A DNA stretch of 32,000 nt from Nitrososphaerota archaeon (GTDB taxonomy: Archaea > Thermoproteota > Nitrososphaeria > Nitrososphaerales > UBA57), in NCBI GenBank assembly GCA_002713205.1, contig PAVW01000006.1, forward strand, positions 30,001 to 62,000, read 5' to 3'. Both the position numbers and the translations under genes were made by a program. The notes under the pieces were generated by a model. The model made no database searches. It had not been told where the DNA came from and was given only the letters and a program-made list of their open reading frames with translations. Position 1 is the first letter of the stretch. Every line of letters begins with the position of its first letter. Below are positions 5,301 to 15,186 of this stretch, in pieces.

Positions 5301-6756
5301 ACGTAGTGTATCAGAACTAATACGTGAATTTGGAGTTATGGGTTGTGCAAATAGTAACAATATTATAGAAGGAGACTCAAGAACAGCACAAATACTATAT
5401 GGAGGTTTATTGAGATCAATTGAAATTGAAGTAAGACCGGTTATAGGCATCTTAGGTACGTCGACAAATATGATTTCGCCAAATGTTGAATTACATGCAT
5501 GGCTTGAAGTAAAATTAGATAACCAGTGGATAATTATCGATCCATCAACTGGGATAATGTCTATTGATTTAATACTGCCGGAGAATGTACAAGGAGAATT
5601 TAATCAACGTGAGATATTCAATGCAATACCAGAGCAAGGTGGAATATTATCAGCTATGATGTATAAATGCATTACGATATGTAATATAGATATAACTGAA
5701 TCATACAGTGGAAAAGTGCCAATTTTTAATCCAGGGTCAATGATTTTTGTAGAAGGAGATGTAAATGTGAATATAATAGACTCAAATCGTAATTTCATCA
5801 CTAATGGAACTTTAGTTACATATTCATGGTCAGAGAATAATCAAGAAGAGAGTTTATCAAGATTTGTAAAGTTAATTATGTTGTCAGAAGGTGTAGATCT
5901 GCAATATATAACAATAAACATAGAAGGGCAATTGGGAAAACAATTTCAACTAAATATATTGAATTCGATTAATTTTGAATATAAAGTAACTTCTATTTCA
6001 CCGACTTTATTTTCAAAGTCGGAAGTAGAATATAAAATTCAGATAGAAGGAAATAAATTATCAATATATGAATTTGTTACGTTGGAATTCGAAGAAAATG
6101 AAATTGATATTATATCAACTTCATCAATAATTAGAGAAAGTCAACAAAGAAGATTAACGGCAATAGAAATTACAGTAGCTGGTAATAAAGGCAATACAGG
6201 AACAGTGATAATAAGCATACCTAGAGAAATATTTTCAGAACTGAATTCAGAATCAACAGATATAATTGTAATAATAGATGAACAAAGAGTACCGGTAGAA
6301 ATAATAGATGATGAATTAATACCAATAATAAAAATAAATTACATATTTAATATGGAAAAAGAAATTCAAGAAAAAAGAATCATAGTTTTCTTAAAAACAT
6401 ATAAAGTTTCATTCGAATTGAGAGATCCACTAAATAGAATAATTAATAATGCCGAAATAAAAATGATCGGGGAAACTGAAAATAGAACGCAAATAAGTAA
6501 CCAACCAATATTTGAACAACTTCATCCTGGGAATTACAAATTTACAATTAATTATAGAGGCGAATTAGAAGAGATTTCAAAACGAATTAATGATGATGAT
6601 ATAAACGTTAGAATTAATTTATTTAGATCAGATTCTATGGTTAGTTTCATAACAGCAGGTATTTTTATAATAATTGCAGTAATATCCTTCGGTATACAAA
6701 TTGCTCTTTCAAAAGTAATACCTGAAGATAAAAAGAAATCAGCTTCGGGTTCTTAA
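2326..6756 (+). CDS. Giant (1476 aa) membrane-anchored surface protein with multiple Ig-like modules, InlB-B-repeat-like motifs and a transglutaminase-like core
   Basis: N-terminal signal-peptide-like segment MKENLVLFCLICLILSLQTVIIVPTSQG. C-terminal TM helix (VSFITAGIFIIIAVISFGIQIAL) followed by a basic tail. Serial ~100-aa beta-rich modules resemble CARDB/Big-type domains (e.g. ITATIKDGNGIVISGANVTLSFSGGSGSF...TDSNGKF). Three copies of a Y-[KG]-F-x-x-W motif (RYKFNSW, RYKFQNW, EYGFKQW). Transglutaminase-like G-x-[C>S]-R...HAWxE...D core around 5290-5560. Confidence 0.8.
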   Translation: MKENLVLFCLICLILSLQTVIIVPTSQGESDEISIDAIPSEYIVITKGSSGTITLDITKVNSTLGSGNPIRTVSISVENLPTGSSASVSSPFSTSVFVGVTSYNLDVTITAPLSVESGSYNVVFRATLDKDSEDVNTNDVTKTVTVYISDFELSTSSSTVTLMPGESEEIVLTAKSLNNFSGSVDVILPTVTGAVIENLGSLNVPEGTQDTTNIRFTINSNAVENGNGVPVDIKTKVGNLERIITITLKIIPNTLQIELTADPNPVVIFQESVITATIKDGNGIVISGANVTLSFSGGSGSFSNSLSSIAGITDSNGKFSDQFEVIKGVVIIKAETSKTNYGTSSTTITLGTKGHFELSVEPDSNIINAGDQKTLTVSVRSIDGFNSPVKLSYAGGGIGISVEFTSSDIITPPPNETSEASVLITLSNSVDPKLYSVQLIGVDTITGELSKTATFSIDVPEVDIAITITPSKQTINQGDIALFNITLLSLGGFQSDGVTLKTDLPDDMEVTFIPNPVTLEPGGNRKLQLRIETNDNTNPIDEYPIIIAATSLNSETTITAYLTVKELFDVFFDSTHRIGGEELAVVKIFVDGFPIQEEDLPAHRKYVEGTNITIKILNNIVDEEKGVRYKFNSWNDGSVSVERKITVDRSSTFRAEFDKEFLLELKTTPIGVTKPLGDGWYKEYTEVSINTMPIVDITDTSRYKFQNWDGAILAKNERTDIVMDAPKQIFANYILQYRISRTVEPEFLKNLINLSEKEWVDRGAQIDLVADEKVNEYGFKQWIIESSLGRESIINNPWKISVNEPINIILEYQLLPDVQIVSVNMANNGFEGEFSHMWLNLANNHLRGGDIIIKVETSIDGLVITPLKIEMFIDANEEKTISFMINYTKQGSGTIKFTLEKTAQMESKEFYKEFKIFSQNEKRIVINMGKSLSAKHLPEFNSLMEPNDRVIICATEIIEQTMLQESATELEKARLILKFLSSRIISVPEIQPRSVSELIREFGVMGCANSNNIIEGDSRTAQILYGGLLRSIEIEVRPVIGILGTSTNMISPNVELHAWLEVKLDNQWIIIDPSTGIMSIDLILPENVQGEFNQREIFNAIPEQGGILSAMMYKCITICNIDITESYSGKVPIFNPGSMIFVEGDVNVNIIDSNRNFITNGTLVTYSWSENNQEESLSRFVKLIMLSEGVDLQYITINIEGQLGKQFQLNILNSINFEYKVTSISPTLFSKSEVEYKIQIEGNKLSIYEFVTLEFEENEIDIISTSSIIRESQQRRLTAIEITVAGNKGNTGTVIISIPREIFSELNSESTDIIVIIDEQRVPVEIIDDELIPIIKINYIFNMEKEIQEKRIIVFLKTYKVSFELRDPLNRIINNAEIKMIGETENRTQISNQPIFEQLHPGNYKFTINYRGELEEISKRINDDDINVRINLFRSDSMVSFITAGIFIIIAVISFGIQIALSKVIPEDKKKSASGS

Positions 6757-14256: not shown

Positions 14257-15186
14257 CTACTCTAAATGTTCAAGTTCCTTTTTAATACTTTCAATTTCAG
14301 TTGCTAGTTCCTTATCAATTCGTTGTGCGCGAACTAATACAAGATCAAGTCGATTTGCTTTGTCATTCACATAGCTAACTAAAAATGAATTTGAAGTACG
14401 AGCACGATAAAATAGAAATGCTAGAATTAATGAAATAAGTGCAAAAGAAATAGAAGCTGCCATATACAAAGTTGTAGTCATAGGCGGTTCAGGGAAATCA
14501 GAATTAGGGATAGTAGAAAGAAGAACAATTGCATCATCATAAAAACCAAAAGAAGTTAATGTCTCTGCTTCATTAACAATACTAAGTGCTAATTCAGAAT
14601 ACTTAGCATCCATACTGGTTTCAGATAATATTTTACGTTTATCAGATAACAAATTTTCATAAGTAATAATTGTCTGATCGGTAATTGTGTAAGTTTTATC
14701 ATCAAGAATCTCCATAGACTCTAATGAAAGAATCAAAATAGAAAATTGTTGCAAAGAATGAACAGTTTTTTGTATATCTTGAAGTTGTTGTTCAGTTATA
14801 TCACCAGGAATCATACCATTGAGAGTAAATTCTGCAATTCCTTCCTTAGCTTGAAACATAATTGATTGTGAACCAGGAGTCCACGTTGAAGTATCTACAC
14901 CAGCATAATTATTTTCCAATGTCCAAAATTCATTTCCTGATTTTTCCATACTAGTAGAAAGTAAAATATTATCACTGAGTGTTGCACCAATTTCTATAGT
15001 AAACTTAACAGTATATGCACCACCAGCAACAAGAGACTTGTCTGTAATGTCATTTCCATTTGGATCCAATACAACAAAACTAGATAGAACTGCGGGTGCT
15101 TGTTCAAAGGAAAGAGGAATTTGAAAACAACAAGTCAATAACAAGAAGAATAATAGTGCAGAAACAAAATTTAATTTTAAATTCAT
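14257..15186 (-). CDS. Type-I-like membrane protein (signal peptide, beta-rich ectodomain, C-terminal TM, short coiled-coil tail); first gene of the tubulin-like operon
   Basis: N-terminal MNLKLNFVSALLFFLLLTCCFQIPLSF. C-terminal TM LYMAASISFALISLILAFLFY followed by a basic residue and a charged helical tail (RAQRIDKELATEIESIKKELEHLE). ATG start. Its stop lies 8 nt before the 901-aa gene. Confidence 0.7.
   Translation of the reverse strand: MNLKLNFVSALLFFLLLTCCFQIPLSFEQAPAVLSSFVVLDPNGNDITDKSLVAGGAYTVKFTIEIGATLSDNILLSTSMEKSGNEFWTLENNYAGVDTSTWTPGSQSIMFQAKEGIAEFTLNGMIPGDITEQQLQDIQKTVHSLQQFSILILSLESMEILDDKTYTITDQTIITYENLLSDKRKILSETSMDAKYSELALSIVNEAETLTSFGFYDDAIVLLSTIPNSDFPEPPMTTTLYMAASISFALISLILAFLFYRARTSNSFLVSYVNDKANRLDLVLVRAQRIDKELATEIESIKKELEHLE

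Follow-up and report, generated by a model that had tools for sequence, protein, structure and literature searches.

A conserved five-gene module around two tubulin/FtsZ-fold proteins in uncultured archaea and Dehalococcoidia

What job do tubulin relatives perform in archaea that divide with the Cdv proteins? In every domain of life, proteins of the tubulin/FtsZ superfamily underlie division, the shape of cells, and the segregation of DNA. The question is raised by a cluster of five genes, here called E, D, C, B, and A, on a 32,000-nucleotide stretch of a Nitrososphaerota archaeon genome (GenBank assembly GCA_002713205.1, contig PAVW01000006.1, positions 30,001 to 62,000 of the forward strand). 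This whole stretch is referred to as the window. An earlier interpretation based on the letters and open reading frames (ORFs), here termed the sequence-only reading, had proposed that D and A are tubulin/FtsZ paralogues and that the cluster is a self-contained system apart from the canonical divisome. Pfam, family profiles, and AlphaFold2 models searched with Foldseek now place both proteins in the tubulin/FtsZ fold. Homologues of the other genes lie beside D in dozens of genomes from several phyla, and the cluster as a whole matches no characterized system, in agreement with a self-contained module. On balance, we favor a membrane-anchored cytoskeletal or remodeling machine as the role of this module.

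Linkage and spread of the five genes

Gene E (14257 to 15186, minus strand) encodes a 309-amino-acid (aa) protein that is bitopic by hydropathy. Its stop codon is separated by exactly 8 nucleotides (nt) from the TTG start of gene D (11543 to 14248, minus strand), which encodes a 901-aa member of the FtsZl1/Tubulin_2 (PF13809) family. Gene C (9142 to 11607, minus strand), encoding a polytopic membrane protein, is 821 aa as the longest ORF, which starts at a GTG and shares 65 nt with the end of D. An alternative TTG start at 11511, 31 nt past the D stop, gives 789 aa, and this is probably the true length because close relatives are 786 to 790 aa. Gene B (8159 to 9145, plus strand), encoding a soluble protein of 328 aa, converges on C, and the two stops share 4 nt. 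Gene A, the second tubulin/FtsZ-fold gene, is 473 aa as the longest ORF (6739 to 8160, minus strand). However, its relatives are 439 to 445 aa, so the ATG at 8076 is the likely start. This gives a 445-aa protein (6739 to 8076, minus strand) and leaves an 82-nt divergent spacer to B. The ORF list thus bore out the five genes, the 8-nt gap, and the 4-nt stop overlap of the sequence-only reading, and C does overlap or closely follow the D stop, depending on which start is used.

Whether these genes belong together was examined in 87 loci containing a D homologue, 80 of them from GTDB with one genome per species. ORFs were called in all 87 loci and searched by iterated hidden Markov models seeded with the window proteins. 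D was present in 87/87 loci, E and C each in 81/87, A in 78/87, and B in 54/87, and many of the missing partners fall at contig ends. Two neighbors of the cluster in the window were found far less often, the transglutaminase-like surface protein F in 13/87 loci and the SLOG-family protein G in 9/87. The loci span Nitrososphaeria, Bathyarchaeia, Methanomethylicota, and Dehalococcoidia/Chloroflexota. The system had been read as archaeal; this stands for the first three groups, but its occurrence in Dehalococcoidia means that it is not only archaeal. Among the D loci, the genes stand in four or more distinct orders or orientations. For example, the window clade has G>E>D>C>B<A>F<, Dehalococcoidia have E>D>C>B>A>, Bathyarchaeia have E>D>A<C>(B>) or B>E>D>A<C>, and some thaumarchaea have C>A>E>D>. 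When linkage persists through rearrangement across phyla, it is a classical sign of a functional module. Judged by these gene neighborhoods, E-D-C-B-A is a conserved, self-contained module.

The module is rare. Of 185,579 species genomes, 202 contain a D relative; every carrier found is uncultured, and the module is absent from most members of each carrier phylum. Identity to the window D is 60 to 92% in Thaumarchaeota, 42 to 54% in Dehalococcoidia/Chloroflexota, 34 to 41% in Bathyarchaeia, and 38% in Methanomethylicota. In a rough, unbootstrapped neighbor-joining tree of D, a Bathyarchaeia-type clade stands apart from a second clade that has thaumarchaeal sequences interleaved with Chloroflexota ones, which points to transfer between domains. 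Mis-binning is an unlikely cause because some of the Chloroflexota carriers are scaffolds of 0.76 to 1.77 Mb. A viral or mobile origin of the module was considered and rejected: no relatives were found in 2.9 million viral contigs (IMG/VR), and the flanks are housekeeping genes.

The closest loci, in which D is 78 to 80% identical, include the metagenome-assembled genome ASW8. This genome is one of the heterotrophic marine Thaumarchaeota (HMT), which are sister to the ammonia oxidizers and have genomes of at most ∼1 Mb. The window itself is probably from a thaumarchaeon of this heterotrophic marine type, with a genome of ∼1 Mb. In the HMT pangenome table, the five proteins appear as unannotated clusters in only 4 to 5 genomes. 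E (307 aa), C (788 aa), and B (327 aa) have no Pfam label there, whereas D (898 aa) is labeled Tubulin_2 and A (456 aa) is labeled Tubulin. The present analysis corrects the literature on this point: these Tubulin and Tubulin_2 matches belong to the module described here and not to a divisome, which bears on the unsettled role of tubulin relatives in archaea that divide by Cdv.

The five proteins

D belongs to the tubulin/FtsZ superfamily and is a member of the Pfam Tubulin_2/FtsZl1 family. It matched PF13809 with 40.1 bits (gathering cutoff, 27; E value, 3.4e-10) over residues 15 to 219, corresponding to model positions 2 to 208 of 356, and PF00091 with an E value of 1.9e-6. The canonical FtsZ model TIGR00065, in contrast, gave only 20 bits against a cutoff of 295. 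A suspected link of the cluster to noncanonical FtsZ-like families was therefore correct. A database search returned 340 homologues; most of those listed are ∼900 aa, align over 97 to 100% of the query, and carry a precomputed PF13809 match.

The nucleotide-binding features of D are well preserved. The T1 motif GLGGTG (residues 17 to 22) is invariant or at least 90% conserved among 60 homologues. The T4 tubulin signature GLGGGSGSG (residues 183 to 191; 13676 to 13702, minus strand), a GTP phosphate-binding motif, varies little or not at all among 15 and among 60 aligned members and aligns to GGGTGSG of CetZ1. A T7-like synergy loop, NFDLAD (residues 299 to 304; 13337 to 13354, minus strand), was assigned by motif and position. 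It directly follows an H7-like helix (residues 279 to 297) in the AlphaFold2 model, and F300 and D301 are invariant and D304 at least 90% conserved among the 60 homologues. The corresponding T7 motif of Escherichia coli FtsZ is NVDFAD (PMC3684127).

The AlphaFold2 model of D (pLDDT, 90; pTM, 0.78) has three parts. The predicted tubulin-type GTPase domain (residues 11 to 330; 13259 to 14218, minus strand) contains the H7-like helix, the T7-like loop, H8, and one further strand (residues 320 to 329). It is followed by ∼380 helical residues forming an all-helical region of 11 helices (residues 332 to 714; 12107 to 13255, minus strand), which includes a hairpin of 56- and 52-residue helices (residues 577 to 632 and 636 to 687). 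The C-terminal alpha/beta domain (residues 722 to 892; 11573 to 12085, minus strand) is seen in both model and alignment, and W791, P797, W801, and W836 are invariant in it. Foldseek matched the model best to CetZ1 (E value, 2.4e-6) and then to FtsZ, TubZ, and tubulin, all with a probability of 1.00. There were 56 PDB matches at E values of ≤1e-3, and the alignments to FtsZ, CetZ, and TubZ span ∼335 columns.

Two further observations concern D. A conserved hydrophobic stretch in the helical region, NPELVINFALLSSLLSPIS (residues 563 to 581; window positions 12506 to 12562), has a transmembrane (TM)-like Kyte-Doolittle value of 1.74. It lies at the end of helix 546 to 572, beside the long hairpin, and could be a buried core or a membrane-inserting tip. 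One Bathyarchaeia homologue (P0091 in locus L005, positions 10001 to 12865; 954 aa) has a C-terminal CxxC...CxxC zinc-ribbon extension and lies next to an Orc1/Cdc6 gene. The zinc-ribbon element is thus at the C terminus of D in this protein and at the N terminus of A in other lineages.

A is more divergent. Alone, it matched PF00091 with an E value of only 0.05, although 18 of 24 family members from related loci matched this model singly. A profile built from the 24 members matched the Asgard tubulin AtubB2 (E value, 9e-11), CetZ (1.4e-10), and Methanocaldococcus jannaschii FtsZ (6e-10) in PDB. The AlphaFold2 model (pLDDT, 77; pTM, 0.76) gave more than 1,000 PDB matches at E values of ≤1e-3, led by gamma-tubulin (1.2e-13) and CetZ (2.8e-13) and including beta-tubulin, TubZ, and FtsZ, within a range of 1e-13 to 1e-11. 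TM-scores over both domains were 0.55 to 0.66 by query and 0.62 to 0.74 by target. By profile and predicted structure, A is a full two-domain tubulin fold. A and D are related to each other only distantly (hhalign probability, 91%; E value, 1e-6; ∼150 columns). The A family is small: its profile found only 152 clusters among 1.84 billion representative proteins, and further word-indexed homologue searches with A returned only close thaumarchaeal relatives.

The zinc ribbon and the degraded GTP-binding and T7 residues that had been noticed in A were confirmed. A zinc-ribbon-like CPxxH...CxxC element (residues 20 to 36, with C20, H24, C33, and C36; 7969 to 8019, minus strand) is conserved in members from thaumarchaea and Chloroflexota but occurs in none from Bathyarchaeia. 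The T4 signature of the window protein is degraded to TGLLGEPLVSAI (residues 167 to 178; 7543 to 7578, minus strand). No member of the motif-census alignment has an NxDxx[DE] T7 motif, and in the model the H7-like helix runs directly into a strand with no acidic T7. The T4 signature varies by lineage. In the window clade of HMT-like thaumarchaea it reads GE[TP]LVS, and in Bathyarchaeia mostly W[DE]G[IV]GS. In contrast, 16 of 19 Chloroflexota members have GGGTGSG and the other three differ from it at one position, and four deep-branching thaumarchaeal members keep an intact GGG[MT]G-type signature. The description of A as noncatalytic therefore fits the window lineage but not the family, and, as far as the alignment indicates, degradation of the GTP signature is lineage specific. 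Bathyarchaeia-type homologues of 644 to 658 aa (P0201, P0204, P0213, P0214, and P0237; loci L075, L076, L079, L081, and L087) carry N-terminal extensions of 190 to 290 residues. A Pfam search found no fused domain in them; the extensions are rich in P, E, and K and look disordered, recalling the flexible linkers of FtsZ.

Could A be the divergent FtsZ already reported from thaumarchaea? The Nitrosopumilus maritimus "FtsZ," Nmar_1262, fails to polymerize, has AGKAGSA in place of GGGTGTG, and lacks a canonical T7; thaumarchaeal division is carried out by Cdv and not by FtsZ (PMC3684127). Like A, then, it is a divergent tubulin relative from a Cdv-dividing phylum with a degraded GTP motif and no canonical T7. 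However, HMT genomes, which carry CdvABC, also carry a separate ftsZ resembling that of the ammonia-oxidizing archaea (AOA), 29% identical to Nitrosopelagicus FtsZ and distinct from the gene for the 456-aa Tubulin protein of the cluster. Nmar_1262 lacks a zinc ribbon and begins right at the T1 strand. Its motifs were absent from the 148 sequences scanned among 150 listed matches to the A profile, and no cultured ammonia oxidizer is among the best 80 D loci (down to 34% identity). For these reasons the kinship raised by the sequence-only reading was rejected. The evidence is indirect and argues that A is distinct from the Nmar_1262-type thaumarchaeal FtsZ.

No significant Pfam, NCBIfam, or PDB sequence match was found for C, E, or B, either singly or member by member, and only helical-bias noise appeared. 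As expected for a ∼10-TM protein with a long helical domain, C has ∼10 hydrophobic segments in family-averaged hydropathy (residues 65 to 383; 10459 to 11415, minus strand) followed by a helical soluble domain of 438 residues in an alignment of 23 homologues (residues 384 to 821; 9145 to 10458, minus strand). This domain ends in a conserved module, EFLLNYP...DLP..KYA.EYL.LY...FD. Hydropathy, loop charges, and the positive-inside rule suggest that both termini face inward (N-in/C-in) and that one acidic loop of 61 aa is external, which would make the soluble domain cytoplasmic. The 23-sequence alignment has no conserved Walker A-like motif, and C was therefore rejected as a membrane P-loop GTPase like the "GTPase_new" of archaeal FtsZl1 operons.

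By hydropathy, E has the predicted signal-like N terminus (residues 7 to 25), an ectodomain of ∼210 aa that is beta-rich and then helical, a TM helix (residues 240 to 258), and a cytoplasmic helix of ∼50 aa. The best-conserved part among 22 homologues across phyla is the cytoplasmic tail, VEDQxKxLExLxxRASRIDKxL, which suggests contact with a conserved cytoplasmic partner. In the Dehalococcoidia locus L003 (positions 9045 to 9998), E is split into ORFs of 104/107 and 202 aa, whereas in locus L004 (5678 to 6631), which has an identical D, it is intact (317 to 320 aa). The split is probably a frameshift or an assembly error.

B consists of an N-terminal domain of ∼110 aa, a charged linker, and a helical domain of ∼200 aa, has no TM segments, and evolves fast (10 to 25% identity). 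The best PDB match of the N-terminal profile was the PH domain 6f8e (E value, 0.0054, covering the second half of the fold only). Other PH-like matches were weak: POB3 (0.31) for the same profile and bPH_3 (0.041) for one member. The earlier GRAM/PH-like assignment is thus favored by the top match, but the fold is not established.

Proposed function and its alternatives

The nearest described systems are the operons of FtsZl1 (FtsZ-like 1), the Pfam Tubulin_2 family (PF13809), which were predicted to remodel membranes (Makarova and Koonin 2010, PMC2875224). Their published partners are vWA, diverged P-loop GTPase, and OmpA-family proteins and Ser/Thr kinases. The euryarchaeal operon consists of A2 (∼280 to 330 aa, membrane), FtsZl1 (∼1040 to 1130 aa), a membrane GTPase, and A1, and in Sulfolobus proteins of 831 and 263 aa come after a disrupted FtsZl1 (PMC2875224). 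As in this family, D is built in three parts: it begins with an FtsZ-like GTPase, continues as a long helical or coiled-coil region, and ends in a distinct C-terminal domain. The module is likewise rich in membrane proteins, with one of ∼300 aa just upstream, like A2, and it likewise coexists with other division systems and is uncharacterized. However, vWA, the P-loop GTPase_new, OmpA, and Ser/Thr kinases are absent from the five proteins, from their neighbors, and from the Pfam-annotated related neighborhoods. The partners here are instead a second tubulin-fold protein, a 10-TM protein, and a possibly PH-like protein. D also differs in length (∼900 aa versus ∼1040 to 1130 aa), in having a clear T7-like motif where T6-H7 was unidentifiable in published FtsZl1, and in having a C-terminal domain that is alpha/beta rather than, for the most part, alpha-helical. 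Hosts from Nitrososphaeria, Bathyarchaeia, Methanomethylicota, and Dehalococcoidia were not in the 2010 set, and full-text literature searches found no paper describing this gene arrangement. The best reading is that the module is an undescribed TACK-archaeal/Chloroflexota variant of the predicted FtsZl1 membrane-remodeling systems.

How might such a machine work? D would be its GTP-binding motor or scaffold. It is predicted to bind GTP, and a T7 loop completes the active site of a neighboring subunit, which makes D the candidate self-assembling, GTP-hydrolyzing element; head-to-tail, GTP-hydrolyzing contacts are possible. The helical stalk of ∼380 residues and the C-terminal alpha/beta domain may dock partners. 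A may coassemble with D, or cap or nucleate its assembly. Because A has a full tubulin body and no T7, it could present or accept an interface without triggering hydrolysis in its neighbor, and in the window lineage it appears to have lost the GTP signature as well. In Chloroflexota, where A keeps GGGTGSG, the T7 of D could hydrolyze the GTP bound by A, an asymmetry that would resemble alpha/beta-tubulin. C and E would hold the assembly at the membrane and connect it with the cell envelope or the outside, and B would be a soluble adaptor. The overall role would be the shaping or remodeling of membrane and envelope (cell shape, vesicles, or surface-layer organization) rather than primary cell division.

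Two known groups are instructive for the D-A pair. CetZ structures (4b46 and 3zid) are the best or near-best matches for both proteins, and CetZ is a tubulin-superfamily protein that acts at the membrane outside division. However, CetZ is ∼360 to 390 aa with a canonical C-terminal domain, it has no stalk, dedicated polytopic partner, or operon paralogue, and its Foldseek alignments with D and A show only 12 to 17% identity. Alpha/beta-tubulin and BtubA/B are, like D and A, paired paralogues that differ in T7 catalytic competence: D has an acidic T7 and A has none, and in Chloroflexota both keep GTP signatures. Gamma- and beta-tubulin are also among the best fold matches of A. The differences are that D and A are only distantly related, that D has a huge non-tubulin extension, that the pairing here is a candidate drawn from the genes, and that no microtubule-like lattice is implied. 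A bolder proposal is that D and A form an obligate hetero-assembly which independently re-invents alpha/beta-tubulin logic, that C and E wire it into a trans-envelope cytoskeleton shaping the membrane or surface layer of wall-less archaea, and that transfer between domains brought it to Dehalococcoidia. We regard this as speculative and rather doubtful. If true, it would be a new kind of prokaryotic tubulin machine, beyond a mere FtsZl1 variant.

Several points weigh against a membrane-anchored cytoskeletal or remodeling machine. The canonical FtsZ/tubulin C-terminal domain does not directly follow T7/H8 of D in the AlphaFold2 model; thus, the claim that D carries every FtsZ/tubulin landmark held for T1, T4, and the T7-like loop and failed for this domain. 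Against solved structures, the best match of the D sequence profile was CetZ1 at an E value of 3.7e-4, with an alignment around T1 and T4 only. C, E, and B have no recognizable domains, so only topology and gene position indicate their roles. About one third of the loci lack B or have no B that was detected, and in two loci (L005 and L038) D has none of the four partners nearby. The patchy spread and the transfer between domains also fit accessory or conflict systems. Finally, when FtsZl1 was first described, the authors doubted that its members assemble into filaments in the usual manner (PMC2875224), and full-text literature searches found no experimental study of this family or of any FtsZl1 protein.

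Among other explanations, a conflict (anti-virus or abortive-infection) system, in which the tubulin-like NTPase assembles on sensing an invader and the membrane proteins are effectors, has a precedent in the work of Kaur et al. 2020 (PMC7159879). These authors recast bacterial tubulin/vWA/GTPase loci, including tubulin-coiled-coil gene pairs, as conflict systems, and some of those systems likewise hold two tubulin-coiled-coil genes and membrane proteins. The rare and patchy module, its crossing between archaea and Chloroflexota, the fast evolution of A, B, and C, and the decay of the A active site in some lineages would fit such a role. Yet the published systems are defined by GAP1-N2/double-Obg GTPases and vWA, FNIII, HSP70, and effector domains (PMC7159879), none of which is in the module, and neither are P-loop GTPase, effector-associated, or nuclease/protease effector domains. 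None of the five proteins matched any of 5027 PADLOC models at an E value of ≤1, and no integrase or mobile-element gene was found in the four gene-annotated neighborhoods that hold the cluster. Together with the lack of relatives in viral contigs, the fixed, syntenic position in the thaumarchaeal lineage, and retention in streamlined genomes of at most ∼1 Mb, this makes a conflict role unlikely. D is also well conserved for a defense gene, with a mean column identity of 51 to 54% across phyla in alignments of 15 and 60 members.

An accessory or alternative division apparatus, that is, a second noncanonical Z-ring-like system with its own membrane anchors, might be expected from the superfamily itself: GTPases with an intact T7 typically act in division or segregation, D and A match FtsZ and CetZ structures, and C and E as dedicated anchors could stand in for SepF or FtsA. 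However, no SepF, Min/MinD, FtsA, or Cdv/ESCRT domain was found among the non-overlapping ORFs of at least 110 aa in the window, as the sequence-only reading had also noted. The closest genomes have CdvABC and a separate AOA-type ftsZ in a phylum whose division uses Cdv and not FtsZ, and the best D loci described above include no cultured ammonia oxidizer. Absence from most members of each carrier phylum is unlike an essential division system, and we consider this explanation improbable. DNA segregation of the TubZ type, with a filament that moves DNA through the zinc ribbon of A or the winged-helix-like end of protein C, is highly improbable. The TubZ/TubR/tubC (type III plasmid-partition) systems, like the module, have a divergent GTPase of the tubulin superfamily that carries helical extensions at its C terminus, D and A both have TubZ structures among their best fold matches, A has its zinc ribbon, and the C-terminal module of C gives the visual impression of a helix-turn-helix-like pattern. 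But the locus is chromosomal and lies among housekeeping genes, the module is absent from viral contigs, a Pfam scan found no TubR-like gene, two of the five proteins are integral to the membrane, one of them with an ectodomain, and the zinc ribbon is missing from all Bathyarchaeia members of A.

If the module is a variant FtsZl1 remodeling machine, as we prefer to think, it supplies a compact parts list for the most divergent branch of the superfamily, FtsZl1/Tubulin_2, which was described in 2010. The parts are two proteins of tubulin fold, whose catalytic features complement each other, and three dedicated partners. The module appears to be under strong selection, since ∼200 species in two domains have a D relative and the five genes are kept in thaumarchaeal genomes of ∼1 Mb. 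D and A are soluble and have confident predicted structures; therefore, the lack of cultured hosts does not preclude in vitro assays of GTPase activity, assembly, and interaction.

Genomic setting

The window has a G+C content of ∼30% and no tRNA genes, and the flanks of the cluster are ordinary chromosomal genes. These encode a HisRS-like protein, aconitase, and an Lhr helicase; a DHH phosphoesterase, malic enzyme, and a Toprim (primase-like) protein; and a Pelota/eRF1-like protein, TtuA, an ArsR regulator, MarC, and ribosomal protein L10e. A scan with bacterial promoter and terminator models, which do not cover archaeal promoters, found fewer promoter-like sites than in shuffled sequence.

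Gene F (2326 to 6756, plus strand) converges on A with an 18-nt overlap and encodes a 1476-aa surface protein by Pfam and hydropathy. Its features are a signal peptide, Ig-like domains with Big_1 among them, a transglutaminase-like core (residues 964 to 1073), and a C-terminal TM anchor. The 13 loci in which F is syntenic are 12 thaumarchaeal loci and one from Dehalococcoidia (L039), where a 777-aa relative lies upstream of E. F is probably a lineage-specific neighbor outside the module core; it could cooperate with the module at the envelope or simply be syntenic with it. On the other side of the cluster, directly upstream of E and on the same strand, are genes for a SLOG cluster-4 (LDcluster4) protein and a flavin reductase (15262 to 15756 and 15760 to 16239, both minus strand). 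The SLOG gene, G, holds this position in the nine closest loci only.

Two other ORFs of the window deserve mention. The histidyl-tRNA-synthetase-like ORF (962 to 1672, plus strand; 236 aa) has the class II core without the anticodon-binding domain and, instead of a synthetase, may be a regulatory paralogue resembling HisZ. A 340-aa ORF (24232 to 25254, plus strand) shows subthreshold similarity to the catalytic domains of geranylgeranyl reductase (E value, 2e-4) and flavin halogenase (1e-3).

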